Sequence record: NC_019717.1
Source: Enterobacteria phage HK225
Reading direction: 5' to 3' (one strand)
DNA: 45,366 bases
Positions within the stretch are counted from its first letter, which is position 1. Each line of letters opens with the position of its first letter. Below the pieces are notes generated by a model. That model was not told the origin of the DNA. It saw nothing but the letters and a program-made list of their open reading frames with translations, and did no database searches. Positions 2,650 through 34,915 of the stretch are shown piece by piece. A program made the translations under genes and the position numbers.

Positions 2650-4238
2650 AAATACCATCTTTAGTGGGACCTGACGGGAAAACATCCCTTCGGGAATACG
2701 CGGGATATCATGGTGGTGGTGGCGGGTTTGGTGGGCAGCTGCGGGGCTGGAATCCGCCGAGTGAAAGTGCAGATGCCGCACTCCTTCCCAACTATTCTCG
2801 TGGAAATGCCCGCGCTGACGATCTGGTGCGAAATAATGGCTATGCAGCAAACGCCGTGCAGCTCCACCAGGACCACATCGTCGGGTCATTTTTCAGACTC
2901 AGTTATCGACCGAGCTGGCGCTATCTTGGCATCAATGAGGAGGATTCACGCGCATTTTCTCGGGATGTGGAAGCCGCCTGGAATGAGTATGCCGAAGATG
3001 ACTTCTGCGGGATTGATGCCGAACGCAAGCGAACGTTTACGATGATGATTCGTGAAGGTGTAGCAATGCATGCGTTTAACGGTGAATTATGCATGCAGGC
3101 GACATGGGACAGCGATTCAACGCGTCTTTTCCGTACTCAGTTCAAAATGGTTAGTCCGAAGCGCGTCAGTAATCCAAGCAACATCGGTGATACCCGGAAC
3201 TGTCGCGCCGGGGTAAAAATCAATAATAGTGGTGCTGCGCTGGGATATTACGTCAGCGATGACGGTTATCCTGGTTGGATGGCGCAGAACTGGACCTACA
3301 TACCTCGCGAGCTCCCCGGAGGGCGCCCCTCTTTTATCCATGTCTTCGAACCGATAGAGGACGGACAGACCCGTGGAGCCAATGCGTTTTACAGCGTTAT
3401 GGAGCAGATGAAAATGCTCGATACCCTGCAAAACACCCAGCTCCAGAGTGCGATAGTGAAGGCCATGTATGCTGCCACCATCGAGAGTGAGCTGGATACG
3501 CAGACGGCGATGGATTTCATTCTCGGCGCGGATAATAAAGAGCAGCAGAGCAAACTGACGGGCTGGCTCGGTGAAATGGCGTCCTATTACTCAGCTGCGC
3601 CGGTTCGCCTGGGTGGGGCAAGGGTTCCACACCTGTTGCCGGGTGATTCTCTCAACCTTCAGTCGGCGCAGGATACCGATAACGGCTACTCGACTTTTGA
3701 ACAGTCACTGCTGCGCTATATTGCCGCTGGGCTGGGTGTATCGTATGAGCAGCTTTCGCGAAATTATTCTCAGATGAGTTACTCGACTGCGCGCGCAAGC
3801 GCTAACGAGTCATGGGCGTACTTCATGGGCCGTCGCAAGTTTGTGGCATCCCGACAGGCCTGTCAGATGTTTCTTTGCTGGCTGGAAGAGGCAATTGTCC
3901 GCCGCGTGGTCACACTTCCTTCAAAAGCCAGATTCAGCTTTCAGGAAGCGAGAACAGCCTGGGGAAATGCCAACTGGATCGGCTCAGGCCGCATGGCTAT
4001 TGACGGGCTGAAAGAGGTACAGGAAGCCGTCATGCTCATCGAGGCTGGTCTCAGTACGTATGAGAAAGAATGCGCCAAACGCGGTGATGATTATCAGGAG
4101 ATTTTTGCCCAGCAGGTCCGGGAAACAATGGAGCGTCGTGCTGCGGGTCTGAAACCACCGGCATGGGCCGCTGCCGCTTTTGAGGCTGGACTGAAAAAAT
4201 CAAACGAGGAGGAGCAAGATGGCGCACGAGCTGCGTAA
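2646..4238 (+). CDS. B: portal protein (lambda gpB-like)
   Basis: 530-aa ORF in portal position, translationally coupled to W; lambda B-like by recollection. Confidence 0.9.
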
Positions 4239-19034: not shown

Positions 19035-19708
19035 TGGCCGAATTTGGCGCGATGATATTAATGGATAACGGGAATCCCTTTGTAACGCCACAATCAACGC
19101 CTTTCTGTCTTTACGGGAAGTATACCTTCAATTCATCCGCGAATGGCAGTTCTCAGCAGGTTGCTCAAAATATCGCTTTAAACGCTGATTACCCAGTGAT
19201 GGTTTTTATCAAAACCACCAATACAGCACAGCCCACTCCGGTTATGTCTTACAGGAACGGCGGTAATGTGTATGTTGTTGGTGTTAATCCCTACAACCAA
19301 AGTTTCACTTTAACGGCGTACGTTTTTGCCATATTCCCGCAGATATTACCGAAATGGGGTTTGGCAATATGGGATGCGAGCGGAAAGCTTGTGTTAACTA
19401 ATGAGTCCCGTGTGCTATCAGACCTGCAGACGGTTGGCACGCCTGGTGCAAACGGCGGGATAAATATTGACCAGACGCTGAGCGGGTCATGGGCCGTTGC
19501 ACCTGCTCAGTTGGGTCAGACCATCATTGTGAATAATTCAACCCAGCCTCCGACTATCTACACGATAAATGCTTATTCTTCATGCAGGTTTGACGGGGCC
19601 AATACGAGGATAAACGCAGGGGGGACCTCCACTGGGACAGGTTCACCTGTAGGGGGAACGAATACTGGCATTTCATTAACCGCCATAAATACAGCGGCCT
19701 ATGATTGA
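19034..19708 (+). CDS. hypothetical protein with two copies of the WDASG-type module
   Basis: 224-aa ORF, start overlaps the previous stop; Gly/Thr-rich C-terminus. Confidence 0.5.
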   Translation: MAEFGAMILMDNGNPFVTPQSTPFCLYGKYTFNSSANGSSQQVAQNIALNADYPVMVFIKTTNTAQPTPVMSYRNGGNVYVVGVNPYNQSFTLTAYVFAIFPQILPKWGLAIWDASGKLVLTNESRVLSDLQTVGTPGANGGINIDQTLSGSWAVAPAQLGQTIIVNNSTQPPTIYTINAYSSCRFDGANTRINAGGTSTGTGSPVGGTNTGISLTAINTAAYD

Positions 19709-19730
19709 TTGATCGTTTTTAGCGATCAAT
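19708..19730. promoter_or_regulatory. palindrome ATTGATCG-N7-CGATCAAT upstream of the lipoprotein gene
   Basis: perfect 8-bp inverted repeat in an AT-rich intergenic region. Confidence 0.3.
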
Positions 19731-19819
19731 AACATAATATTGATCTATCCAATCAATTATACCCACCAGAATTGTATTGGTATCGTCTAAGATACTGAAT
19801 TCCTCTGGATACTATCAAA

Positions 19820-20053
19820 ATGAGAAAACTGATTATCTGCATGGCAGGCGCTGTCATGCTTACAGGATGCGCTGGCGTAATTGAGAAACAGGAACCAGTT
19901 TGCAGCGGCACTGCAATCGTTGGCGGTCAGGAAACTACGGTTCAGATTTACGGTGTGCGTAAACAAAACAACCAGACGCAGTACCGGGCTGGATATCCTT
20001 TCAGCTGGCGCTGGGTAAGTGCGAATACATTTACCGAAACAACCTGCAAATAA
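19820..20053 (+). CDS. small lipoprotein, candidate Cor-like superinfection exclusion protein
   Basis: 77 aa; signal peptide with lipobox LTGC; own AT-rich upstream region and terminator; sits in the lom/cor slot between J and stf. Confidence 0.5.
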   Translation: MRKLIICMAGAVMLTGCAGVIEKQEPVCSGTAIVGGQETTVQIYGVRKQNNQTQYRAGYPFSWRWVSANTFTETTCK

Positions 20054-20074
20054 CCCACTACGCTTAAACATAAA

Positions 20075-20096
20075 CCTCGCTCCGGCGGGGTTTTTT
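20075..20096 (+). terminator. intrinsic terminator after the lipoprotein gene
   Basis: CCTCGC-tccg-GCGGGG stem followed by TTTTTT. Confidence 0.65.
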
Positions 20097-20116
20097 ATTG
20101 CCCGAAAGGAGCGCAT

Positions 20117-20977
20117 ATGTCTGCAGGAACTATCACCCTGACAAACGGGTCCGCTGTTGTTGGCGGTGCCGGAACCTCATTCGCAACCGAACTCGCCGGA
20201 GGTGATTTCATTGTTTCGACTGTGGGCGGTGTGCCCTACACGCTGCCGGTGAAAACGGTCGACAATAATACCCAGGTGACGCTGGTCAGCAACTTCACCG
20301 GGCCAACACAATCCGGCGCGGCCTGGTCAGCTGTGCCACGCGTGGCGCTGAACATGGTCACTGCCGCGCTGGTGGCGCAAAGTGCCGAAGCACTACGTGG
20401 TTTGAATTACGATAAACAGAACTGGCAGCAGGTTTACAGCGCCGCCGGAAACATCACAGTGAAGTTGCCAGACGGCACCACTTTCACCGGCCCATCATGG
20501 AAATATCTGTCTGACAATATGGCAACCAAGAGCGGTGGTGCAGTACCCGTTAACCAGGGAGGGACCGGGGCGACAACCGGAAACGCCGCGCTGTCCAATC
20601 TGGGTATCACCTATGTCAGGTCAGGAACAAACTACAGCGTGATAAAAATTGGCGATATTTATCAAATGGATTTCCTCATAGGTGGCGGCATCGCAATAGG
20701 GGCGTATAACCCTTCGGTAGTGGGAGGTATTGCGTATTACACGCACTACTATAAATTACCCCTGCCGATGGCATTACCAAACGGCGTTATAACTGCCATT
20801 GCGTCCATTTCGGGTGACAGATTTGGAAATCAATACCCCGGATACAATGCTGACGTTAAAGTATCCAGAGATAAAGATGATGGCAGTGGGCTATTAACAA
20901 CATATTTAACCGTCAGCGTTAAAACTCCTCAGACAGGCTGGACCCCTTATTTTCATATAAGAGTGGTGGGGTATTGA
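20117..20977 (+). CDS. stf: side tail fibre protein (short)
   Basis: 286-aa ORF, Gly/Thr-rich N-terminus MSAGTITLTNGSAVVGGAGTSF typical of enterobacterial tail fibres; immediately followed by a tail fibre assembly gene. Confidence 0.6.
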   Translation: MSAGTITLTNGSAVVGGAGTSFATELAGGDFIVSTVGGVPYTLPVKTVDNNTQVTLVSNFTGPTQSGAAWSAVPRVALNMVTAALVAQSAEALRGLNYDKQNWQQVYSAAGNITVKLPDGTTFTGPSWKYLSDNMATKSGGAVPVNQGGTGATTGNAALSNLGITYVRSGTNYSVIKIGDIYQMDFLIGGGIAIGAYNPSVVGGIAYYTHYYKLPLPMALPNGVITAIASISGDRFGNQYPGYNADVKVSRDKDDGSGLLTTYLTVSVKTPQTGWTPYFHIRVVGY

Positions 20978-20978
20978 T

Positions 20979-21392
20979 ATGAAATATTTTTACAGCATCA
21001 GCACGCAGGGATTTTACCTCGATAACGGTATGCTGGATGCGTATAAAGCGGCTGGCTCACTACCTGCGGACTTGCAAGAGATGAGCGAGGCTGACTATCT
21101 GGCGTTTTTTAATCCTCCCGATGGATTCGCGGGCATATTTGACGAGAAAGGACCGCGTATTGAACAACTGCCAGAACTGGACCCGCTGGCGATAGCAGAA
21201 AATCAACGGCGGCTGTTGCTGTCAGAAATCGCTCCGACTATTTCTGTATGGCAGACAAAAATCCTGGTGGGCATGAAACTGAGTGATTCAGAAACCGCAG
21301 CCCTGCATGCCTGGTTGAGTTACAGTGATGCGCTGAACGCGCTGGATATCACCGTGCCAGATATTCAGTGGCCTGAAAAACCCGCAGCGTGA
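20979..21392 (+). CDS. tfa: tail fibre assembly protein
   Basis: 137-aa ORF 1 nt after stf; MKYFYS...GFYLD N-terminus typical of Tfa chaperones. Confidence 0.7.
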   Translation: MKYFYSISTQGFYLDNGMLDAYKAAGSLPADLQEMSEADYLAFFNPPDGFAGIFDEKGPRIEQLPELDPLAIAENQRRLLLSEIAPTISVWQTKILVGMKLSDSETAALHAWLSYSDALNALDITVPDIQWPEKPAA

Positions 21393-21407
21393 TGTGATTT
21401 TCATTAA

Positions 21408-21433
21408 CCGGGCAGAAAAGGATGACTGCCCGG
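21408..21433. terminator. hairpin between convergent tfa and dinI (possible bidirectional terminator)
   Basis: CCGGGCAG-N10-CTGCCCGG inverted repeat. Confidence 0.35.
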
Positions 21434-21449
21434 TGATGTGAATATGTAA

Positions 21450-21689
21450 TTAATCAGCAACCAGCCACATGTCAGATTCTTCAAACATCTCTTCAAGCAT
21501 ACGATTAAGCCGTTCTTTCTCTGTTTTCGTGCAGTTGCTGTTTAGCGCGTTCGCCTGCATCGGCTTTACCTTCACTTCGGCACCAGGGAAAATCTGGTGC
21601 ACCCGCTTCGTCAGTTCGGCCAGAATGATCTCCCTGGCCCCTTCGAGCCCCTCAACATTTCGCTTGTCATAAACCAGTTCAACAAACAT
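21450..21689 (-). CDS. dinI: DinI-like SOS-induced protein
   Basis: ATG at 21689 is preceded by AAGAGGA; 79-aa product aligns with E. coli DinI (ELTKRVHQIFPG, EESDMWLVAD); the upstream part of the 208-aa track ORF is rejected. Confidence 0.75.
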   Translation of the reverse strand: MFVELVYDKRNVEGLEGAREIILAELTKRVHQIFPGAEVKVKPMQANALNSNCTKTEKERLNRMLEEMFEESDMWLVAD

Positions 21690-21745
21690 ACCGATCCTCT
21701 TATAAGTGAAAACTGCCTGTGCTTGATCTGTTTTCATAAAAATAC

Positions 21746-21765
21746 TACTGTATATACATACAGTC
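21746..21765. promoter_or_regulatory. LexA box (SOS operator)
   Basis: TACTGTATATACATACAGTC matches CTGT-N8-ACAG; lies between dinI (-) and the divergent ORF at 21789 (+). Confidence 0.8.
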
Positions 21766-21788
21766 AATGAGCGAGTGAGGGTGCATTT

Positions 21789-22088
21789 ATGCCTCGTCAA
21801 CCGGATATTCGTGCTGCTTTTATTGCGGCCATACAGCAAAACCCGAAGGGCTATCTCTGTCTGCATACAGACAAGTTCATCGCTGAACTGCAGGAGAGGA
21901 ACTGGCATTTCAGTCAGGCGGATGCAAATACATGGATCGAGCGATACCAGCCGGACTTCGCCGATAAGACGACAAACGAAAGCGAGAACCGGTACTGGAT
22001 CCTGCGTAACATGGGGAGGGTTCTGAGGAGTTATCTTGCGATGCGCTATAGGTTTGCCCCATCCCTCCCAAACCAACCTTTTTTATAA
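21789..22088 (+). CDS. hypothetical protein, divergent from dinI
   Basis: 99-aa ORF with GAGG-type SD; begins 24 nt after the LexA box. Confidence 0.45.
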   Translation: MPRQPDIRAAFIAAIQQNPKGYLCLHTDKFIAELQERNWHFSQADANTWIERYQPDFADKTTNESENRYWILRNMGRVLRSYLAMRYRFAPSLPNQPFL

Positions 22089-22147
22089 CCATCAAAAATC
22101 TGGTGATGCTTCGCCGTTTCTCCTGTTTTCATAACAGGAGAAATCCC

Positions 22148-22696
22148 ATGATTTACGGTTATGCCCGAGTATCAACAAACCACCAGGACACTGAATTGCA
22201 ACTAACGGCGCTCAAGTCAGCGGGTTGTGAGAAAATTTTTGAAGAGCATGCCAGCGGGAGGAAATCGAATCGGCCGGTTCTAAAACGGCTGATCGCCACT
22301 ATGCAGCCGGGGGATGAACTGGTGGTCTGGAAGCTGGACAGGATAGGCCGCAACGTTCTGCATGCGCTGTTGATGTTCCAGCAGTTACAGGAAAAGGGTA
22401 TCAACTTCCGCAGTATTACCGATGGCGTGGATCTCAAAACAGCCAGCGGCCGCTATAACTTTCGTAACATCCTTTCCGCAGCACAATATGAATCTGATCT
22501 TAATAGCGAACGTACCTTAGCAGGGCTGGCCGTAGCCAGGGCAAAAGGGCGAGTTGGTGGTCGCAGGCCTAAGTTCACGGATGAGCAATGGCGGGAAATG
22601 GGGGAGCGGATGGCAATCGGTGAATCACGACAAAGCGTATCAAAAACGTATGGAGTAGGGCTCTCAACTCTGTATAAAAAGTTTCCAGCTAGCTGA
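22148..22696 (+). CDS. serine recombinase, DNA invertase (Hin/Gin/Pin family)
   Basis: ATG at 22148 after AGGAGA; MIYGYARVSTNHQD catalytic-Ser N-terminus, VVWKLDRIGRN, C-terminal HTH ending GLSTLYKKFPAS. Confidence 0.85.
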   Translation: MIYGYARVSTNHQDTELQLTALKSAGCEKIFEEHASGRKSNRPVLKRLIATMQPGDELVVWKLDRIGRNVLHALLMFQQLQEKGINFRSITDGVDLKTASGRYNFRNILSAAQYESDLNSERTLAGLAVARAKGRVGGRRPKFTDEQWREMGERMAIGESRQSVSKTYGVGLSTLYKKFPAS

Positions 22697-22716
22697 TAAC
22701 GGGAAAGAAACAGAGA

Positions 22717-22760
22717 AGGGCACAAATATTGTGTACTTTAATGTGCCCTTTAATTTATTG
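22717..22760 (+). terminator. hairpin with T-rich tail after the invertase
   Basis: AGGGCACA-N17-TGTGCCCT stem followed by TTAATTTATT; loop contains a TGTGTAC motif. Confidence 0.45.
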
Positions 22761-23015
22761 ATTGGTGGTTGAATTGTCCGTAACTTTTTGATTTAAGTTC
22801 AAATTTCTAATAAATTAGAACACTTTCTTAAATTGTCATTTGGCATATTACGAACAATTCCGCGTAAAAACGTTCTGTTACGCTAAACCCTTATCCAGCA
22901 GGCTTTCAAGGATGTAAACCATAACACTCTGCGAACTAGTGTTACATTGCGTGTAGCTTTGAGTGGGCAACTTTGTGTACACTTTTGTGTACCCAAAAAC
23001 AAAAATGTGTACCCA
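22720..23015. other. candidate attP region with TGTGTAC repeats
   Basis: AT-rich non-coding region upstream of int; TGTGTAC at about 22731, 22975, 22987 and 23007; contiguous phage DNA on both sides. Confidence 0.35.
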
Positions 23016-23019
23016 TTCA

Positions 23020-24213
23020 ATGATCACCGACACAAAGCTCAGGAAGGCGCTCGGCAAGAAAAGAGATGATATCGAGATTATTTCTGATTCGCACGGGCTC
23101 AACGCCAGAATCAGCCAGGCCGGAAAAATATCATTTTTCTATCGGTATCGCTGGGCCGGTAAAGCGGTAAAACTCAATGTTGGTGATTATCCTGCAATGA
23201 GTATCACCCAGGCAAGAGAACGTCGCCAACAATTCAGAAACTGGTTAACTGAGGGACTGGATCCGCGAGAGCAGGTGAAGCTGGATAAGCAGACCCGACA
23301 GGAAGCGATGTCCGTTGCCGAAGCGTTCAATTACTGGATTGAAAGGCACTGTATCGCTAACGGGCTAGTTAAAGTCGATTACTATCGCCAGGTGTTTGAG
23401 AAACATATCGCCGAACCGATGAAGAATGTCAAAGTCGATAACACAGCGAAAATGCACTGGATCAACGTCTTCGATTCTATAGAAAGCAGGGTGATGGCTC
23501 ATTACATGCTTTCGCTGTGCAAACGGGCGTTTAGGTTCTGCGTTAACAGAAGTGTGATCGCCTCAAACCCACTCGAGGGATTACTGCCATCTGATGTCGG
23601 GCAAAAGCCTAAAAAGAGAACTCGCAGGATGGACGATGACGATCTGCGCAAAATCTATCAGTGGTTGAAAAGCCATATGTCGATAGAGTCCGTTTTCCTG
23701 GTGAAATTTATTATGCTTACCGGATGCCGTACGGCTGAGATTCGACTTAGTGAGAGATCATGGTTTCGATTGGATGATAATGAGTGGGTCGTGCCTGCGG
23801 GCAGTTATAAAACTCGGGTACATATTAGAAGGGGACTCTCAGACGCCGCCGTTAACCTGGTCAGAAATCACCTCAAGAAAATAAACACCAATCACCTGGT
23901 GACTTCACAACGTAAAATTGATGGCGGGATCAAAGATTCGCCCGTTCATTCACCTGTGGCATCCAATTACGCCCGTTCTATTTGGAATGGAACAGGTATG
24001 GCAGAGTGGTCGCTTCATGATATGAGGCGGACGATAGCCACAAATCTCTCTGAGTTAGGTTGCCCGCCGCACGTAATTGAAAAGCTGCTCGGGCATCAGA
24101 TGGTGGGGGTTATGGCGCATTACAACCTTCATGACTATATCGATGATCAGAAACACTGGCTCCGCGTTTGGCAGAGCCATCTTGAAGAGATCATCGGAGA
24201 GCCCTTCAGTTAA
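23020..24213 (+). CDS. int: tyrosine integrase (P4-like family)
   Basis: track ORF starts at GTG 22963; [11 protein letters not shown]-terminus is typical of P4-type integrases; catalytic-region motifs HDMRRT and LLGH...HY; start could also be ATG 23005. Confidence 0.85.
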
Positions 24214-24452
24214 TTTATCTTCTTTTTATCCTCCCACTCTTTGATTGACTCAGAGCGCCAGCGGTTAGGGTTGCCGGGCCAGTCAGGGGGTGGGAACGGG
24301 CATACGAAGCCCCGAGGCATTGTGTCTGCACTTTGCCATGACCAAAGGGTTTTGCGTGAAATTTTGTAGCGACTGGTCAGGTCTGACGTTACCAAAATAT
24401 CATCCATAGCTCTCTCCAGTTGCCCGTTCGGGCCATTCAAAATCTTTTTCAA
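24210..24452 (-). CDS. xis: excisionase-like / AlpA-type small DNA-binding protein
   Basis: 80-aa ORF convergent with int and overlapping its stop; FPPP...W motif recalled from excisionases paired with P4-family integrases. Confidence 0.5.
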
Positions 24453-24729: not shown

Positions 24730-25842
24730 TCAGGCCACGTATTCCGGTTTCATATCCGCCAGGGTGATGCTGAATTGATCGTGCAGTTCATCGCCTAAGT
24801 GACGCTTTGAAGATGCAAGCATGCGCTCGGCTTCAGCGAACCGTTCGGATGCATGCGGCTCGTCGGGCTGGGGCAGGGATTTAATAGCCTCCTCAACCTT
24901 GTTGCGTGCATCCACTAGGTAATAACGCTTTACGGCTTTGTTTTTCAGCTCGGTGAATAGTGCGGATCCCAGCGTAGCTTTCGCCGTTTCAATGTCGGCA
25001 CGCAGCGATTTGGCGCTATCCACGTCCTGAGCAGATTCGATGCGTTCGCGGAAATCATCGGCAAGAGAGTCGACATTTACCGACGATTCCTGTGCGCTTT
25101 GCGTGGTTGTGACGGTGTCACCTGAGATATCAGCCAGGCTAACGCGTTGCGGCGTTGGGTTGATCTCTTTTTCTGTGCGCTGTTCAATCTCATCAGGGGT
25201 GTACACACCAAGAACAACTGCAGGGCAATACAGGCGCGCCCAGTATTTGAGTGCCAGATAAGCGATCTGCTGTTTCGGGTTTGATACCCAAAGTGGAGAA
25301 TTACGTGTGATTACGCTGGAGAGGAAAACAGGCTCTCCCCAGGTGATATCACTTTCACCGCGAATAACGGCACCTACCCGTACCGACAGTCCTTGTTCAT
25401 CAGCACTTTCCCAACCGCGTACCATTTCTTTCTTGTCGTACGTCCCGCCACCTTTCGCAGGCTTTTTAACGGTTATCTCGCGGCTGCTGGCACATTTCGA
25501 CCAGTCGCCCTCGTACTCATAGTGAAAGCGGCCAACGATGGCGTTTGAGCTGGAGATCACCGCATTAACCAGTTGCGCTTCGTATCCCAGGACACCGTTA
25601 ACCAGGTGCGTCTTTTGCGCCACGGCGTAAGGGTTCATACCCCACTGCATCGCCTGCATGATGATGGCCATGCAGTCTGCCGGATTGCCGCGGAGGTGCT
25701 CAGGCACCGTTACGGCTGCCTGTGCCATCAACCCGGCGACAGACTGAAGCTGGGTTAAAGCCTGCACGTTGAAAATGGCATTGCTGGCTGAGATCGTGTT
25801 TGGAGTCTGCTGTTCAGCGGTTACGATATTCGTGTTTTCCAT
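24730..25842 (-). CDS. recT: RecT-family single-strand annealing protein
   Basis: track ORF has three consecutive Met; the third (25842) has the best SD spacing; core GNPADCMAIIMQAMQWGMNPY resembles RecT. Confidence 0.8.
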   Translation of the reverse strand: MENTNIVTAEQQTPNTISASNAIFNVQALTQLQSVAGLMAQAAVTVPEHLRGNPADCMAIIMQAMQWGMNPYAVAQKTHLVNGVLGYEAQLVNAVISSSNAIVGRFHYEYEGDWSKCASSREITVKKPAKGGGTYDKKEMVRGWESADEQGLSVRVGAVIRGESDITWGEPVFLSSVITRNSPLWVSNPKQQIAYLALKYWARLYCPAVVLGVYTPDEIEQRTEKEINPTPQRVSLADISGDTVTTTQSAQESSVNVDSLADDFRERIESAQDVDSAKSLRADIETAKATLGSALFTELKNKAVKRYYLVDARNKVEEAIKSLPQPDEPHASERFAEAERMLASSKRHLGDELHDQFSITLADMKPEYVA

Positions 25843-25853
25843 CATCATTCCCC

Positions 25854-28800
25854 TTATGCCTGAGTACGCAGCGCTTCAAGGCGGCGCAGGTCGAAGTCGT
25901 TCAGTTCGTCGGTGTAGTCAGCAGTGATTGGCGCTGGCCATTCACCTGTGTCGAATCCGGTTGCGATATTGCGCATCGCTTTGCGGTACTCGAGCATACC
26001 CAGCTCCAGTAGTTCAGCGGATGCCTCGATGATGGCGATCCAGTGGTAGTTCTCGTCTTTGTTGACGAAAATCCAGAAGAACTGATCCAGCGCTGCGGTT
26101 TCGCAGTACATAGCCGCGCTCAGGTGATAATCACGTTCAATAATTTCCCGGTGTAGCCTGGCGCGCAGGCTTTCCTGCTTAACATTCCACATGCTGATGG
26201 TTTTCAGGTCAGCACCGATACGCACGCCGTCTAGGTCGATCTCAAGGTCAGGGCGCACACGAACTTCCAGTCCCGTCTCCTCGTCAAAGCCAAAGTAGCT
26301 CACCTCAACGGCGCGGCTCGGGTGGGTTAGCAGCATGCCTGCGGTCGGGTGCGAGAGCAGTGCTGACTGAATTGCCTGCGCGGTGGCAAGTTGCTGGTGG
26401 GTAACCAGCACTTTCCCTTCCGGGTTGTTGCGCCACGCATCGAGCAGCTCGTCGGCGAACACTGCATCTGGTTTGACTGCCTTCACGGCCTGAATCAGAT
26501 CGGCCTTCGTGCCAGAGACTTTCAGCGGTTGCAGCTTCTGAGCTTCCTGCGCGACCAGGTCAGGATTGATAATCGCAAGTTGTTCGAGTAGTGCGTCGCG
26601 GCTGCCGCTGGTTTTAATCTGCGCTGGCAGGGTGGCGTTGTACTCTTTGATGCACGCCTTCATTGCTGTTGCTGTCTTCTTCTGATCTGCATCGATACGT
26701 TGGAATTCAGCTGGCAGCGCCATATAGTTCTGCGCCGTTTCATCCAGGCTAGCGCCCAGCGGCACCAGCGCTGGCAGGGTGGCGTTGTATTCATCCAGCA
26801 AAGCTTTGATATCGTCTGCGCTCAGTTGCGCTGGCAGGCTGGCGTTGTACTCATCAATAAACGCGCGGATCGTTGCCGTGGTGGTAAATGCACCTTCCGG
26901 AATTACGGGTTCAACGCTAAATTCTTCATCGAGCTGTTCTGGCTGCAACGCCAGCGCATGTACCAGGTTTCCCATGTCCAGCACTGAGGAGCGCTCTTTG
27001 ACGATGGTTTTCTCAACGTGGCGCGCATTGAAGTACATCAGCGAAACGCGCGCATCTTTTACCTGGGTGGAACTGATGCCGTTGGCAGCGTGGTAAACCT
27101 CGTTCGGCAGACCTTCATAGCGCCCAGGCTCGAAGTAATCGGGGTAAAAAACAGCTGGTTCGTCAGATTGCGCTTCTGGCTCGGTTTGTGCTGCAACTGG
27201 TTCGGTTTGGCTTACAGAATCGCTATTTTTGGCGACAGAATCCGTATTCTGGTTTACATCGTCCTTCTGGCTGGTATCTGACTCTTCACCAGACTCCAGA
27301 CTGCTTTCGCCTGGCTGTACTTCATCACCAACATTTTTTTCATCACTGACAGTTTCTTGAACCTGCACATTGCTGGTGGTTTCCGTAGCCTGTTTCGTGC
27401 CATGAGTTGCTGAGTTCTGCAGTAAAGCCGTAACGTCGAATATTCCGTTGCCGACATTTTTAACCAGTTCTTGTTCGACTTTCTGCGGTTGTGCTGCCGC
27501 TTCCTCTGCGCGGCGGCGTGCTCCTTCTTCACGCACGCGTTGCAGGTTCTCTTCGTGAGTGCAGAAGGATTTGCGCGGAGACTCCTTACCTTCAGGTTGG
27601 GGAATTTCCTGTGCTGCGGGTTCAGCCTCATGCAACGGCAATAACTCGACCGCGGAATTGAACGCGGCTGTCATGGTCTGGTTAACAAATTCCAGGTGAG
27701 CGACAGGAGTTAAATGAATATTTTCCGGTGCGATACGTACCAGGTTAAAAATAGCCGTGCGGTTAACACCCAGAACGCCTGGCTGATTGCGCAGGATGTT
27801 GCTCCATGATTTCCATGGTTCTTCTTTTTTGGTCACGATTTCTTTAGCGCGACGAAGAATGCTGCCCGGGATCTCGAAGTGGTTGAAGTCCATAGGCAGA
27901 AGGGCACACGCAATCTCTAAATCGAGAGTGTCCAGTGTGTGGTGTGCGTCAGGTCCACGGTCAGTGACGTAACCGCCGTCGGCATTAGTGCCGGAATCAG
28001 TACGCTGCACACTACTGATGCGATTACCGGCGGCCCATTCGCGAACGAGGATACCGCGGTCGATGTGATCTGTAGCGAACCACAATTTCAAAAACTGGAT
28101 TAAGGTTGCGAGTTCAGGGATTTTTCCATCGACAGGGAAGACTTTCTTAACGGCATTCACGACTTTATGAATATCGTGCTCAATGGCTTTTTTGAATGCT
28201 TCCACATTCTCAGCTGCCAGCAGCAGGTTCTGGACGTACGCGTCATCGGTGTCCATCTCAAGGCGGACAATCTCATTTTTCTGCCCTGCGTCGATGTGAT
28301 AGAGATATTCACCATCACCGATGAACTGAGCCAGTACGCGCTGGCGGAATGGCAGGGTGGCAACAACGATCAGGTTCGGTTGCTGTGTCTGCTGGGATTG
28401 CTCTTCGGTATCGACTTCACCATCAACGACGCCACCTTCTGCCCGGCCGTTCTCGTCGGTCTGGATACCGTCCTCAACAGTGAGATCTTGACCCGTTGTA
28501 ACGTCAGCAGCGTTGCTGGTTTCAGTTTTGAGCAACTGCAACTTACCACTGCGCCAGTCTTCTACCAGTTGATTGCGGTCACCGGCATCGGTGTTCACCC
28601 AGTCAGACATGAATGCAGCGATCAATCTTGGTTCGTGCTCTTCGTCTGGTGTGAAAATGTCCTTAACCGCCCGAATCATTTTCCACTCAGCATTCAGGCT
28701 GAGTTTGGCGGTCGCGGGCACATCGTTCCTTGCCACAAGCAGGCTATGGAGATATGTATTGCCTTCATCCAGTGACATTTCGCTGGCAGCCAACTGCTGC

Positions 28801-29243
28801 TCTTTAGTGACGTGGGTTTGGTATTTATCGTTCATCAGATGGACGGCAAAGCGGACCGCTGGAGTACGGTTTTCAACCGGGACAATTTCGGACGCAGTCG
28901 CATCTTCAACGATTACGGTCGGAGTAGGTGTGTAGGGGGCGTCAACGGAACCAGTAGACACACCAGCGGCTTTTGGCAGCCAGGTGCGCCCATCGTCCTG
29001 AAGCTCGTAGCGATCACACCAGGTAAAATCAACTTCACCTTCTTTCGGCAGGCCGTCGACAACTGGGAAATCAGTGCGAATCGGTTTGGCGTAGTCCTTA
29101 CCCCGACCTGTTTCGATACCTGCATCTTCCAGCGCAACATCCAGCATCAGATTGGCGCGAGCCTCGGTTTTAGCAGTGAACCAGACCACTGCATCTTGCT
29201 TTCCGGATTTCTGAGTGGCTTTAACCACATTAAAGAATTCCAT
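25854..29243 (-). CDS. recE: RecE-like exonuclease VIII with long N-terminal extension
   Basis: 1129-aa ORF with GAGGA SD, directly upstream of recT; acidic low-complexity middle; C-terminal region consistent with a RecE-type nuclease domain; internal triplicated EYNATLPA module. Confidence 0.7.
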   Translation of the reverse strand: MEFFNVVKATQKSGKQDAVVWFTAKTEARANLMLDVALEDAGIETGRGKDYAKPIRTDFPVVDGLPKEGEVDFTWCDRYELQDDGRTWLPKAAGVSTGSVDAPYTPTPTVIVEDATASEIVPVENRTPAVRFAVHLMNDKYQTHVTKEQQLAASEMSLDEGNTYLHSLLVARNDVPATAKLSLNAEWKMIRAVKDIFTPDEEHEPRLIAAFMSDWVNTDAGDRNQLVEDWRSGKLQLLKTETSNAADVTTGQDLTVEDGIQTDENGRAEGGVVDGEVDTEEQSQQTQQPNLIVVATLPFRQRVLAQFIGDGEYLYHIDAGQKNEIVRLEMDTDDAYVQNLLLAAENVEAFKKAIEHDIHKVVNAVKKVFPVDGKIPELATLIQFLKLWFATDHIDRGILVREWAAGNRISSVQRTDSGTNADGGYVTDRGPDAHHTLDTLDLEIACALLPMDFNHFEIPGSILRRAKEIVTKKEEPWKSWSNILRNQPGVLGVNRTAIFNLVRIAPENIHLTPVAHLEFVNQTMTAAFNSAVELLPLHEAEPAAQEIPQPEGKESPRKSFCTHEENLQRVREEGARRRAEEAAAQPQKVEQELVKNVGNGIFDVTALLQNSATHGTKQATETTSNVQVQETVSDEKNVGDEVQPGESSLESGEESDTSQKDDVNQNTDSVAKNSDSVSQTEPVAAQTEPEAQSDEPAVFYPDYFEPGRYEGLPNEVYHAANGISSTQVKDARVSLMYFNARHVEKTIVKERSSVLDMGNLVHALALQPEQLDEEFSVEPVIPEGAFTTTATIRAFIDEYNASLPAQLSADDIKALLDEYNATLPALVPLGASLDETAQNYMALPAEFQRIDADQKKTATAMKACIKEYNATLPAQIKTSGSRDALLEQLAIINPDLVAQEAQKLQPLKVSGTKADLIQAVKAVKPDAVFADELLDAWRNNPEGKVLVTHQQLATAQAIQSALLSHPTAGMLLTHPSRAVEVSYFGFDEETGLEVRVRPDLEIDLDGVRIGADLKTISMWNVKQESLRARLHREIIERDYHLSAAMYCETAALDQFFWIFVNKDENYHWIAIIEASAELLELGMLEYRKAMRNIATGFDTGEWPAPITADYTDELNDFDLRRLEALRTQA
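26621..26852 (-). repeat. three copies of a 25-bp repeat inside recE
   Basis: + strand GCGCTGGCAGG(G/C)TGGCGTTGTA(C/T)TC at 26621, 26768 and 26828. Confidence 0.85.
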
Positions 29244-33281: not shown

Positions 33282-34001
33282 CTACAGCAATACCGAGTAC
33301 CAGAAGAGGCGGCCGATTATCTCAACATCATCAATGTCAGCTTCTTCATCAGGGTAGGCCTCATTGTTGTAGCTGCGGATAATTAGCTTTCCGCCTGGCT
33401 TACGATACAGCTGTTTAATGCGCTTGAGTTGACCATTCCCGCCATCTGTCTGACCAATGGCATACAGTTTCCCATCAACTATGCGTTTGTTGTTCGTATC
33501 GACGGCTACAGTCGTACCATCCGGTATCACAGGTTCCATGCTGTCGCCAGTAGCAGGGAAACACAGGATGCCAGACCCATCTGTGTTAGCTCCAACGCGG
33601 CGGAGGGTTGCCTTTGAGAACCTGAGCTTAAAACCATTGTGATCTTCGCTGTGTACGCGTCCATCGCCACACGCAAATTCAATATCCTTAAGAAATGGCA
33701 CTTCAACCTCATCAACAGGAAGCGGGGTGTCTTTATCCCATGCATCAACAACTCCCCACTCAGACTCTGGCGGGATGTTGCTCTCCAGATCCTTCTTTGG
33801 AGAACCCTCTCCATTTAATAAGCAGTCAAGAGAATAACCGAATTTTTCAGATATTTGTTGCGCCGCCTCACGACTTAACGCGTCTCTTTTTATCCAGTTG
33901 TTGACGGTCTGTGGGCTAGTCGACAAAGCCTCAGCCAAATCCCGCTGCTTCAAGCCTTCCCTTGCCAGTAAAAATTTAATTCTTTCAGAAATGCTACTCA
34001 T
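33282..34001 (-). CDS. cI: CI-like prophage repressor (HTH plus S24 LexA-like peptidase)
   Basis: ATG at 34001 after GGAGGG; N-terminal HTH (LKQRDLAEALSTSPQTVNNW); C-terminal GDSM serine motif and conserved Lys. Confidence 0.85.
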   Translation of the reverse strand: MSSISERIKFLLAREGLKQRDLAEALSTSPQTVNNWIKRDALSREAAQQISEKFGYSLDCLLNGEGSPKKDLESNIPPESEWGVVDAWDKDTPLPVDEVEVPFLKDIEFACGDGRVHSEDHNGFKLRFSKATLRRVGANTDGSGILCFPATGDSMEPVIPDGTTVAVDTNNKRIVDGKLYAIGQTDGGNGQLKRIKQLYRKPGGKLIIRSYNNEAYPDEEADIDDVEIIGRLFWYSVLL

Positions 34002-34029
34002 AAAACCCTCCGCTCCATGCATGGTAAAC

Positions 34030-34105
34030 AACATGTGGATTTTTTCCATCACCATAATGTTGATTTAATCCACATCATGAATTAACATGGTGTTGATTAC
34101 ACATG
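34030..34105. promoter_or_regulatory. OR-like operator region between cI and cro
   Basis: 19-bp near-palindrome ATGTTGATTTAATCCACAT at 34057-34075 plus half-sites ATGTGGATT (34033) and TGTTGATTA (34091). Confidence 0.6.
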
Positions 34106-34118
34106 AGCGGAGCAAAAC

Positions 34119-34340
34119 ATGATCAACAAAGAATCCAACGCAAGCACCCCGCTTGAGAAAGCCATTAATGCAGTGGGCGGCTCTCAAAAGGTGCTTGCTG
34201 AAAAGGTCGGCGTAACTCCACAGGCCATCAATATGCTTAAAAAGCGAGGTGGCAGCCTTCCAGTAACAAAAATGCGTAAGTACGAAGAAGTGACGGGGCT
34301 TCCTCGCGAAGTTCTATATCCAGGTATCTTTGCCGCCTAA
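34119..34340 (+). CDS. cro: Cro-like HTH regulator
   Basis: 73-aa ORF divergent from cI; HTH GGSQKVLAEKVGVTPQAINMLKK. Confidence 0.7.
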   Translation: MINKESNASTPLEKAINAVGGSQKVLAEKVGVTPQAINMLKKRGGSLPVTKMRKYEEVTGLPREVLYPGIFAA

Positions 34341-34369: not shown

Positions 34370-34915
34370 ATGCATTCACTTGCGTATCAACAAGGTAACA
34401 AATTTTCGCCAACGGCGATGATTTACCAGAATCGCCGGGAGCCTGATTCCACGGCGTTAAACATCGATGGGATCCGCGCAGCCGTTCGCGCCTGGGCAGC
34501 TGATTGCCGAAGCCGTGAATTTGTCGCCGCGCTGATCGTGGAAGAGTGGCGGGCGTCCGGCGGAACCGGTCTGGATATCCCGACTGACTCGCACCGCCAG
34601 ATGCAGAAAGTGTTTCGATGGATTGATGGCGATACCGAATACGCCGCCAACAACATTCGCCAGCTGGCCCCGGCAATCATGTCGGTCCTGCCGCTGGAGT
34701 ACCGAAACCGTCTGGCGCCGCAGAACGACACGATGTCGCTGATCGCCTCTGCGATGAAAGAGTGTGCCGAGGCTAAACAGGCCGTGCTGCTGGACGCTCC
34801 AGAGCATCAGAAGCTCAAAGAGGTAAGCGAGGGTATAGCGTCGCTGTTCCGCCTCATGCCGGAGCAGGTAGGACCGCTGATGACGATGGTTACATCGATG
34901 CTGGGGGTTATATGA
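34370..34915 (+). CDS. CII-like regulator (YdaT-like)
   Basis: 181-aa ORF in the cII position; resemblance to YdaT-family proteins is recollection only. Confidence 0.4.
   Translation: MHSLAYQQGNKFSPTAMIYQNRREPDSTALNIDGIRAAVRAWAADCRSREFVAALIVEEWRASGGTGLDIPTDSHRQMQKVFRWIDGDTEYAANNIRQLAPAIMSVLPLEYRNRLAPQNDTMSLIASAMKECAEAKQAVLLDAPEHQKLKEVSEGIASLFRLMPEQVGPLMTMVTSMLGVI

Follow-up and report, generated by a model that had tools for sequence, protein, structure and literature searches.

The 45,366-bp genome of Enterobacteria phage HK225 (NC_019717.1; this whole stretch is referred to below as the window) very probably contains the SOS module of a phi80/HK022-like prophage, in which a single LexA operator lies within two back-to-back promoters, with a DinI-like gene to the left and, to the right, orf79, the leader gene of an operon that has lost its umuD'-like gene. 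The original prediction had placed a near-consensus SOS box between a DinI-like gene on the minus strand and a 99-amino-acid (aa) open reading frame (ORF) on the plus strand. Indeed, both genes are present, the box between them is a unique site with a low heterology score, and the predicted range of 21450-22088 coincides exactly with the outer bounds of the two genes (Table 1).

One putative LexA operator within two predicted promoters

The box TACTGTATATACATACAGTC has the form of an E. coli-type LexA operator, a TACTG(TA)5CAGTA palindrome with CTG-N10-CAG. It occurs once in the window and had no match across 100 dinucleotide-preserving shuffles. Scoring with a LexA matrix, which had been proposed along with the original prediction, gave a Lewis-type heterology index (HI) of about 2.5 and left TACTGTATATACATACAGTC as the sole site with an HI below 12 in the window, the matrix being an approximate one derived from a set of 22 E. 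coli operators. An HI of 1.60 has been published for the impCAB operator TACTGTATATACATACAGCA, the first 18 of whose 20 bases are those of the HK225 box, and the impCAB proteins are 9-21-fold up in an SOS-constitutive strain (PMC12211044). Equivalent sites carry a LexA-site annotation in phi80, phiKO2, and P1.

To this we added a comparative set of 43 related phage, prophage, and plasmid loci aligned on the box, the window included. The alignment comprised 32 distinct box sequences; none of them departs from CTG at positions 3-5 or from CAG at positions 16-18, and the central positions vary. The distance from the start of the box to the orf79 start codon ranges from 31 to 44 nucleotides (nt) across the loci and is 43 nt in the window, the same as in all dinI-linked relatives. 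That the palindrome is a chance match, or the site of a protein other than LexA, has a practically negligible probability in light of the shuffles and the absence of a second low-HI site in 45 kb. It would also leave unexplained why 32 diverged orthologous boxes, at a fixed distance to the ORF start, all have the same half-sites, and why the box so closely matches the operator of impCAB, an operon with SOS induction shown by experiment. TACTGTATATACATACAGTC is predicted to be a high-affinity LexA operator, a putative site that would repress both promoters.

The predicted leftward dinI promoter, TTGACT-N17-TATTTT, was found in a promoter scan with 9 of 12 matches, and the box sits between its -35 and -10 hexamers. 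An operator inside the promoter spacer is a layout like that of recA. In all 13 dinI-linked loci, the window among them, the box ends in C and is followed by AAT, which on the other strand makes up the TTGACT hexamer; this holds for none of the 30 dinI-less loci. The terminal C is the one departure of the box from the consensus, and we attribute it to a second job of this base in forming the dinI -35 element. As far as could be found, such a double use of the terminal base of an SOS box as part of a dinI -35 hexamer has apparently not been described previously.

In the predicted rightward promoter, TTGATC-N17-TACTGT, the first hexamer of the box is itself the -10 element, and the box covers both this hexamer and the start region. 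In 41 of the 43 loci, a TTG-type hexamer, TTGATC in most cases, is found upstream of the box, at a distance of 17 nt in 28 and 18 nt in 13 of them, and this spacing has been kept although the spacers have diverged. Taken together, the invariant half-sites, the terminal-C pattern, and the spacing of the rightward promoter lead to the prediction that one operator represses both promoters. Shine-Dalgarno sequences are present at both genes (AGAGGA for dinI). Since the box upstream of orf79 is kept even in the 30 loci that lack dinI, it appears to be above all the operator of the orf79 operon. By inference, this conservation also supports the earlier suggestion that the divergent ORF may be SOS-regulated.

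The assignment of the minus-strand gene to the DinI family was borne out by all profiles of the family as a whole. Its product scores 78.4 bits with Pfam PF06183 (cutoff 24.2), an alignment that covers profile positions 2-63 of 63. It also hits phrog_189 (RecA filament binding protein DinI; E-value 1e-19), and over residues 17-78 it aligns with the solved E. coli DinI structure 1GHH (E 3.8e-6). The alignment extends into the acidic C-terminal helix (...RLNRMLEEMFEESDMWLVA versus ...RISEILQETWESADDWFVS), which was reportedly implicated in RecA binding by Voloshin in 2001, and the isoelectric point (pI) of the protein is 5.0. NCBIfam NF007893, the equivalog model of chromosomal DinI, scored only 37.9 bits, below its cutoff of 111, which argues for a prophage or MsgA-type paralogue rather than an orthologue of chromosomal dinI. 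Ratios of nonsynonymous to synonymous substitution (dN/dS) of 0.09-0.13 versus relatives point to purifying selection. Residues ~47-62 (21500-21560) read ANALNSNCTKTEKERLN versus ANGLNSDASKSDREKLN in all close relatives, the remainder of the gene being nearly identical, which suggests a small mosaic replacement within the gene.

There is no gene 3' of dinI in its operon. Between dinI and the convergent tail-fibre-assembly gene, the minus-strand RNA can form a stem-loop with a 9-bp GC-rich stem (-18.8 kcal/mol; z = -5.6 versus shuffles). This candidate bidirectional terminator has a weak T-run and was not flagged by a scan for consensus terminators; in phiKO2, a putative bidirectional terminator is annotated at the equivalent position. 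For prophage dinI homologues under LexA boxes, SOS induction is documented elsewhere: those of Salmonella Gifsy prophages, under boxes of similar quality, were induced 4.6-23-fold by nalidixic acid (PMC8072944), and prophage DinI homologues under LexA boxes accumulated on mitomycin C (PMC3121763).

The orf79 family and its UmuD'-like partners

The plus-strand ORF of 99 aa is present as predicted, and it belongs to phrog_3893, a family with a length of 79 aa that we refer to as orf79. Its residues 1-79 align with profile positions 1-79 of phrog_3893, whose function is listed as unknown (E 2.4e-42), and it has no match in Pfam or NCBIfam. Among 5.8 billion proteins we found 147 homologues, almost all of exactly 79 aa, in Enterobacter, Escherichia, Klebsiella, Salmonella, and relatives; only one other cluster, with 98% identity, has the 99-aa length. 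An exhaustive hidden Markov model search of 1.84 billion representatives returned 159 members only, which shows that the family is narrow. A median dN/dS of 0.11 over 71 pairs indicates purifying selection, and the window copy has all 13 invariant columns of the family alignment. Three orf79 loci of enterobacterial type (L011, L034, L043) lie on contigs labelled as a Geobacteraceae metagenome-assembled genome (MAG), a Bacillota MAG, and Arthrobacter mobilis; these labels are most likely binning or contamination artefacts and not an extension of the host range.

In relatives, orf79 is the first gene of a bicistron. We examined its neighbourhood in phages HK140, mEp390, Flotzy, Erwinia Midgardsormr38, and Klebsiella RCIP0114, in plasmid pSa128, and in 39 chromosomal loci. 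A UmuD'-like gene that encodes ~106-129 aa comes next after orf79 in about 40 of 46 loci, its start overlapping the orf79 stop codon. The products translated from HK140, mEp390, and Midgardsormr38 all start with MGFPSPA, which we take to be the N-terminus of E. coli UmuD' as generated by RecA-mediated cleavage. Because of this N-terminus, we regard the partners as pre-processed UmuD' analogues like HumD of phage P1, and the P1 record annotates HumD as complementing UmuD'. A dinI gene divergent from orf79 was seen in only 13 of 43 loci. The family is also common on plasmids, with ~1,080 plasmid records carrying a ~40%-identical homologue, 948 of which are typed as conjugative. On the IncX3 plasmid pC703_2, IS26 lies directly 3' of orf79, at the place where the partner gene would be expected. 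As far as could be found, neither the orf79 family nor the almost obligatory coupling of its members to UmuD' analogues appears to have been described before.

The predicted fold of the small protein is a winged helix that resembles those of small transcription regulators, among them PefI, PadR, MarR, and the Fur DNA-binding domain. Our best guess, of low confidence, is that it may act as a protein-binding accessory of its UmuD'-like partner. This assignment is based on the tight translational coupling, on a charge close to neutral in several members, and on the conserved ANxWIERY motif of helix 3, which contains few basic residues. The main alternative, a DNA-binding regulator that might for instance join the UmuD'-like protein in a split LexA/UmuDAb-like repressor and supply its DNA-binding half, would agree with the modelled fold and with the basic character of many members (pI up to 9.7). 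Acinetobacter UmuDAb, reportedly a UmuD homologue that works as a repressor with the small partner DdrR, may count as a precedent. Such a regulator nevertheless seems doubtful to us, given that the 79-aa core of the window copy is near neutral (pI 6.7) with few basic residues in helix 3, that a comparison with the LexA N-terminal domain revealed no homology (hhalign probability 0.1%), and that none of the longer members checked among the 159 representatives is a fusion to an S24 or any other domain. Moreover, partners of the HumD type carry annotations as complementing UmuD' in mutagenesis.

Homology to P1 Lxr was likewise rejected (hhalign probability 0.2%). An identification of the small ORF as ImpC, which we also considered, proved wrong, as ImpC is the DinI-like member of impCAB (PMC12211044). 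The label 'DNA polymerase V' that the small protein has in some sources evidently derives from its gene neighbourhood.

In a broader and speculative proposal, which we consider unlikely, the 79-aa winged-helix protein would be a third dedicated and so far unrecognised part of SOS-mutagenesis modules on mobile elements, LexA-controlled and translationally coupled to the pre-activated UmuD' analogues of phages and conjugative plasmids. It may control their stability, their assembly with the UmuC of the host or their targeting, or form a split LexA/UmuDAb-like regulator, and it could persist and act alone, as in HK225 and on IncX3 plasmids.

The altered 3' end of orf79 and the invertase junction

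The window ORF departs from the family layout in that it encodes 99 aa instead of 79 aa with a stop codon overlapping a UmuD'-like start. Relatives read ...AAC ATG GGG AGG GTT TTC TAATGGG, whereas the window reads ...AAC ATG GGG AGG GTT CTG AGG AG... Its T-run is 2 bp shorter, neither the stop codon of the family nor the UmuD'-like ATG is left, and the frame continues for 21-22 codons to a TAA at 22086-22088. With three phage UmuD'-like queries, tblastn found no UmuD-like coding sequence in the 5 kb around the ORF (19290-24289).

The P2-like Klebsiella phage Kp4865-2 (L052, 2118-2620) has the last ~70 nt of the ORF, from AACATGGGG to CCCAAACCAAC, with 100% identity. There, the same 70 nt, which comprise the NMGRV codons, the tail, and the left half of a crossover-like site, join a different, Klebsiella-lineage orf79 to another invertase. 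This orf79 is truncated by an IS1 InsB-like ORF, and its 3' end is fused to the 70-nt stretch. The arrangement implies that the junction arose once and may have spread by recombination within orf79. Identity between the window and Kp4865-2 ends exactly at the core of the crossover-like site, after TCCCAAACCAAC and before a C, a core that is also found upstream of pin in E. coli SZQ1 and phi80. Since the identity ends at this point, we assign the tail to the left flank of the invertase cassette.

The core TCCCAAACCAACC is present upstream of pin in SZQ1, phi80, and Kp4865-2, with flanks that diverge at the core (SZQ1 ~1480-1500; Kp4865-2 ~2590-2620; L001 ~3480-3500). It presumably resembles the crossover site of Hin, Gin, and Pin (hixL). 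In the window, the site CCCTCCCAAACCAACCTTTTTTATAA is located 60 nt 5' of the invertase gene and contains the stop codon of the ORF. No inverted partner of this site was found in the window, and for this reason the invertible tail-fibre system appears defunct. In an identical E. coli prophage (L054, 1218-1601), RefSeq lists the tail-fibre gene that corresponds to window positions 20117-20977 as partial, 'missing C-terminus', which is consistent with a decayed invertible tail-fibre region beside pin. The only barrier between the ORF and pin (22088-22148) is a weak terminator-like hairpin at 22101-22116 (6 pairs, 3 of them GC), and SOS-induced read-through from the ORF into pin is conceivable.

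In E. coli SZQ1 (L053, 137-3284), the same parts stand in another order: an invertible tfa(+)/tfa(-) pair, pin, dinI on the minus strand, orf79, a UmuD'-like gene of 106 aa, and, where the prophage ends, tRNA-Pro. This difference in order indicates that the SOS module is a mobile cassette relative to pin.

These observations raise the question whether only the dinI arm is functional, so that the 99-codon ORF would be a dead, though perhaps still transcribed, remnant of an orf79-umuD' operon and the box would matter for dinI alone. RefSeq/PGAP calls the identical DNA a pseudogene of 78 codons, 'missing C-terminus'; stop codon and partner gene have been lost from a member of a family that is otherwise strictly 79 aa long and coupled to a UmuD'-like gene; and for the 99-aa form, a single-sequence AlphaFold2 model has low confidence (pLDDT 55). 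On the other hand, 77 of the 79 family residues are intact, with no loss at any invariant position or in any of the predicted secondary-structure elements (to residue 71). The 99-aa form is also kept elsewhere free of further lesions, namely in two E. coli chromosomes, at a metagenomic prophage end (98% identical), and in the viral UniProt entry K7P7N3, and IncX3 plasmids retain orf79 after IS26 removed its partner. K7P7N3, an unnamed 99-aa protein in BFVD, is 100% identical over 78 aligned columns, which places the frameshifted variant in an already deposited phage proteome. A dead remnant is therefore a serious possibility, but in our estimate not the probable state of the ORF; the rightward arm is probably either degenerate or partly functional.

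Proposed mechanism, related modules, and genome context

According to our proposed SOS module, LexA would silence both promoters in an undamaged lysogen. Upon DNA damage, RecA filaments would trigger self-cleavage of LexA, and both genes would be transcribed. Proteins of the DinI family bind RecA filaments and damp the co-protease activity of RecA; the HK225 product would do so most strongly for UmuD, and could also temper cleavage of the S24-type CI repressor, by which it might delay or sharpen induction. The rightward operon would originally have given host UmuC a ready-made UmuD' that needs no RecA-mediated processing, with the 79-aa protein translationally coupled to the HumD-like pre-processed UmuD' analogue. 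In HK225, the UmuD'-like gene would have been lost at the junction with the flank of the Pin-invertase cassette, and the rightward arm would yield only a modified small protein, consisting of residues 1-77 and a foreign basic tail, and perhaps read-through into pin.

The immunity region of the window encodes a CI-type repressor with a helix-turn-helix (HTH) domain, a Peptidase_S24 domain, and a GDSM motif, as well as Cro-, YdaT-, O-, and P-like proteins. With a lambda-like CI of the S24 type, induction is expected to occur via RecA-stimulated self-cleavage of the repressor, and given this domain it is mechanistically possible that the DinI-like protein could tune CI cleavage and induction. We also considered an antirepressor under LexA control that would inactivate the repressor of the phage; the small ORF would then be a counterpart of GfoA/GftA of Gifsy, Tum of 186, or AntC of N15, and the module an induction trigger. 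Gifsy phages use antirepressors and not repressor cleavage, and a ~79-aa protein under a LexA box beside a dinI homologue, outside the immunity region, is reminiscent of them (PMC3121763). Yet a repressor with an S24 domain (57.8 bits) and GDSM needs no antirepressor, the orf79 family is tightly coupled to UmuD'-like genes, its ~1,080 plasmid records include inspected loci with no phage repressor nearby, and the Gifsy antirepressor gene lies 3' of dinI in the same operon and not divergent from it. Scans of Pfam, NCBIfam, and PHROG matched no antirepressor family, the GfoA, GftA, Tum, and AntC sequences not having been compared directly. An antirepressor is thus very improbable, and on the grounds of the cleavable CI, the umuD' coupling, and the abundance on plasmids we rejected this identity.

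Several points weigh against the proposed two-promoter SOS module. Besides the approximate nature of the HI matrix, the rightward -10 hexamer TACTGT is weak, with 3 of 6 matches (TAnnnT only). The sequence features, the family assignments, and the conservation across loci are observed; LexA binding, transcription starts, inducibility, DinI activity, and any function of the small protein are all inferred for the HK225 phage. The small protein may be inert here, its C-terminus being altered and its partner lost. The tail could derive either from a decayed umuD' 5' end, to which it has ~60% identity over ~34 nt, or from an old invertible tail-fibre segment. Finally, in the one genetic test that we found, deletion of dinI in Gifsy-1 and Gifsy-3 left induction unchanged (PMC3121763).

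The minus strand of the tail, considered as a possible tail-fibre fragment, reads KKVGLGGMGQ..., and tblastn with this translation matched only Kp4865-2, which carries the identical sequence.

SOS modules of this kind are already known from phiKO2, N15, P1, phi80, Gifsy, and impCAB; the HK225 locus is a partly degenerate one, and its uncharacterised component is the small protein. The closest relatives are the dinI/box/orf79-umuD'-like loci of HK140, mEp390, and Flotzy, with 80-90% DNA identity over dinI, box, promoters, and orf79 codons 1-77. They keep the 79-aa stop codon overlapping the UmuD'-like ATG and a gene of 106-129 aa, whereas the window has the 2-bp shorter T-run and the pin cassette instead. 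The phiKO2 gp22(DinI)-lexA-gp23(UmuD) locus and the N15 gp26 region resemble the window in their location after the tail-fibre genes and in having one LexA site with divergent promoters, and phiKO2 further has its DinI-like gene on the opposite strand next to a bidirectional terminator. The rightward gene of phiKO2 is itself the UmuD-like one, while in the window this place is taken by a gene of the 79-aa family and the UmuD-like gene is absent. P1 likewise has one annotated LexA site between two divergent genes, lxr and humD, of which the latter encodes a pre-processed UmuD' analogue. The P1 Lxr protein (190 aa), however, is unrelated to orf79 and not identified as a DinI relative, and there is no orf79 upstream of humD.

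In impCAB (TP110, pTF2, Shigella virulence plasmid), the DinI-like ImpC and a UmuD homologue are expressed under the near-identical box with demonstrated SOS induction (PMC12211044). This operon is unidirectional, includes the UmuC homologue ImpB, and lacks orf79, in contrast to the divergent dinI of the window, which has no UmuD or UmuC homologue. The dinI-antirepressor-irsA operons of Gifsy-1, -2, and -3 and the tum operon of 186 are SOS-induced and place a prophage dinI under a LexA box outside the immunity region (PMC3121763; PMC8072944). They carry an antirepressor and their repressors are not cleaved, whereas the window has a cleavable CI-type repressor and no gene 3' of dinI. The dinL-pinL-attP-int region of phi80 shows the same order, with tail fibre, dinI-like gene and predicted LexA site, decayed fragments, crossover core, pin, attP, and int; it has no orf79 homologue, and pseudogene fragments occupy that space. 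A literature search for phi80 dinL gave nothing usable.

Through the LexA-controlled dinI genes and UmuD' analogues that temperate phages and plasmids carry, DNA damage in the host is tied to RecA activity and mutagenesis, possibly also to prophage induction, and such links bear on the spread of phage and plasmid traits under antibiotic stress. Overall, the HK225 locus adds little to this picture, but it illustrates cleanly how two promoters can share one built-in operator and draws attention to a conserved, uncharacterised small protein that is also present on IncX3 resistance plasmids. The function of this protein is a tractable question in SOS mutagenesis on mobile elements.

Table 1 Features of the HK225 SOS locus and related elements of the window
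Feature	Position	Strand	Basis or remark
dinI-side stem-loop, candidate bidirectional terminator	21407-21434		Between tail-fibre-assembly gene and dinI (convergent)
DinI-family gene, 79 aa plus stop	21450-21689	-	Pfam PF06183, phrog_189, 1GHH alignment
Predicted rightward promoter of the small ORF	21723-21751	+	-35 TTGATC 21723-21728; -10 TACTGT 21746-21751
Predicted leftward sigma-70 promoter of dinI	21739-21767	-	-35 TTGACT 21767-21762; -10 TATTTT 21744-21739
Putative LexA operator (SOS box) TACTGTATATACATACAGTC	21746-21765		Common to both predicted promoters
Small ORF, 99 codons, ATG start, orf79 family (phrog_3893)	21789-22088	+	Residues 1-77 intact, then 21-22-aa non-homologous tail
Junction and tail of the small ORF	22021-22088	+	DNA alignments with relatives
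Orphan Hin/Gin/Pin-type crossover-like site CCCTCCCAAACCAACCTTTTTTATAA	22063-22088		Core TCCCAAACCAACC kept upstream of pin genes
Pin-like serine DNA invertase	22148-22696	+	Pfam Resolvase 134.6 bits and HTH_7; phrog_125 DNA invertase
CI-type repressor with S24 autocleavage domain	33282-34055	-	Pfam Peptidase_S24 57.8 bits, Phage_CI_repr, HTH_3; GDSM

The window is a phi80/HK022/N15-like lambdoid phage genome of E. coli prophage type. Upstream of dinI, the order is gp22/gp23-like genes, cor, a tail-fibre gene (20117-20977), and a tail-fibre-assembly gene (20979-21392); beyond the SOS box, the small ORF is followed by the Pin-type invertase and an integrase gene (22963-24213). No record in the phage DNA collection searched spans the dinI/box/orf79 locus end to end. 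Positions 21400-22150 are 100% identical in the chromosomes of E. coli ECCRA-119 and YZMc10-2, and in ECCRA-119 the invertase adjoins yciI/tonB, which marks the prophage's right-hand end.

Outside the SOS locus, a RecT-family gene (24730-25848, minus strand) adjoins an ORF of 1129 aa (25854-29243, minus strand), and the region 24730-29243 is presumably a RecE/RecT-type recombination module as in the Rac and Gifsy prophages. The window also encodes a YdaT_toxin-family protein (34370-34915; Pfam 95.8 bits) at the position of cII, with a Cro-like gene (34119-34340) upstream of it and the replication genes O and P downstream.

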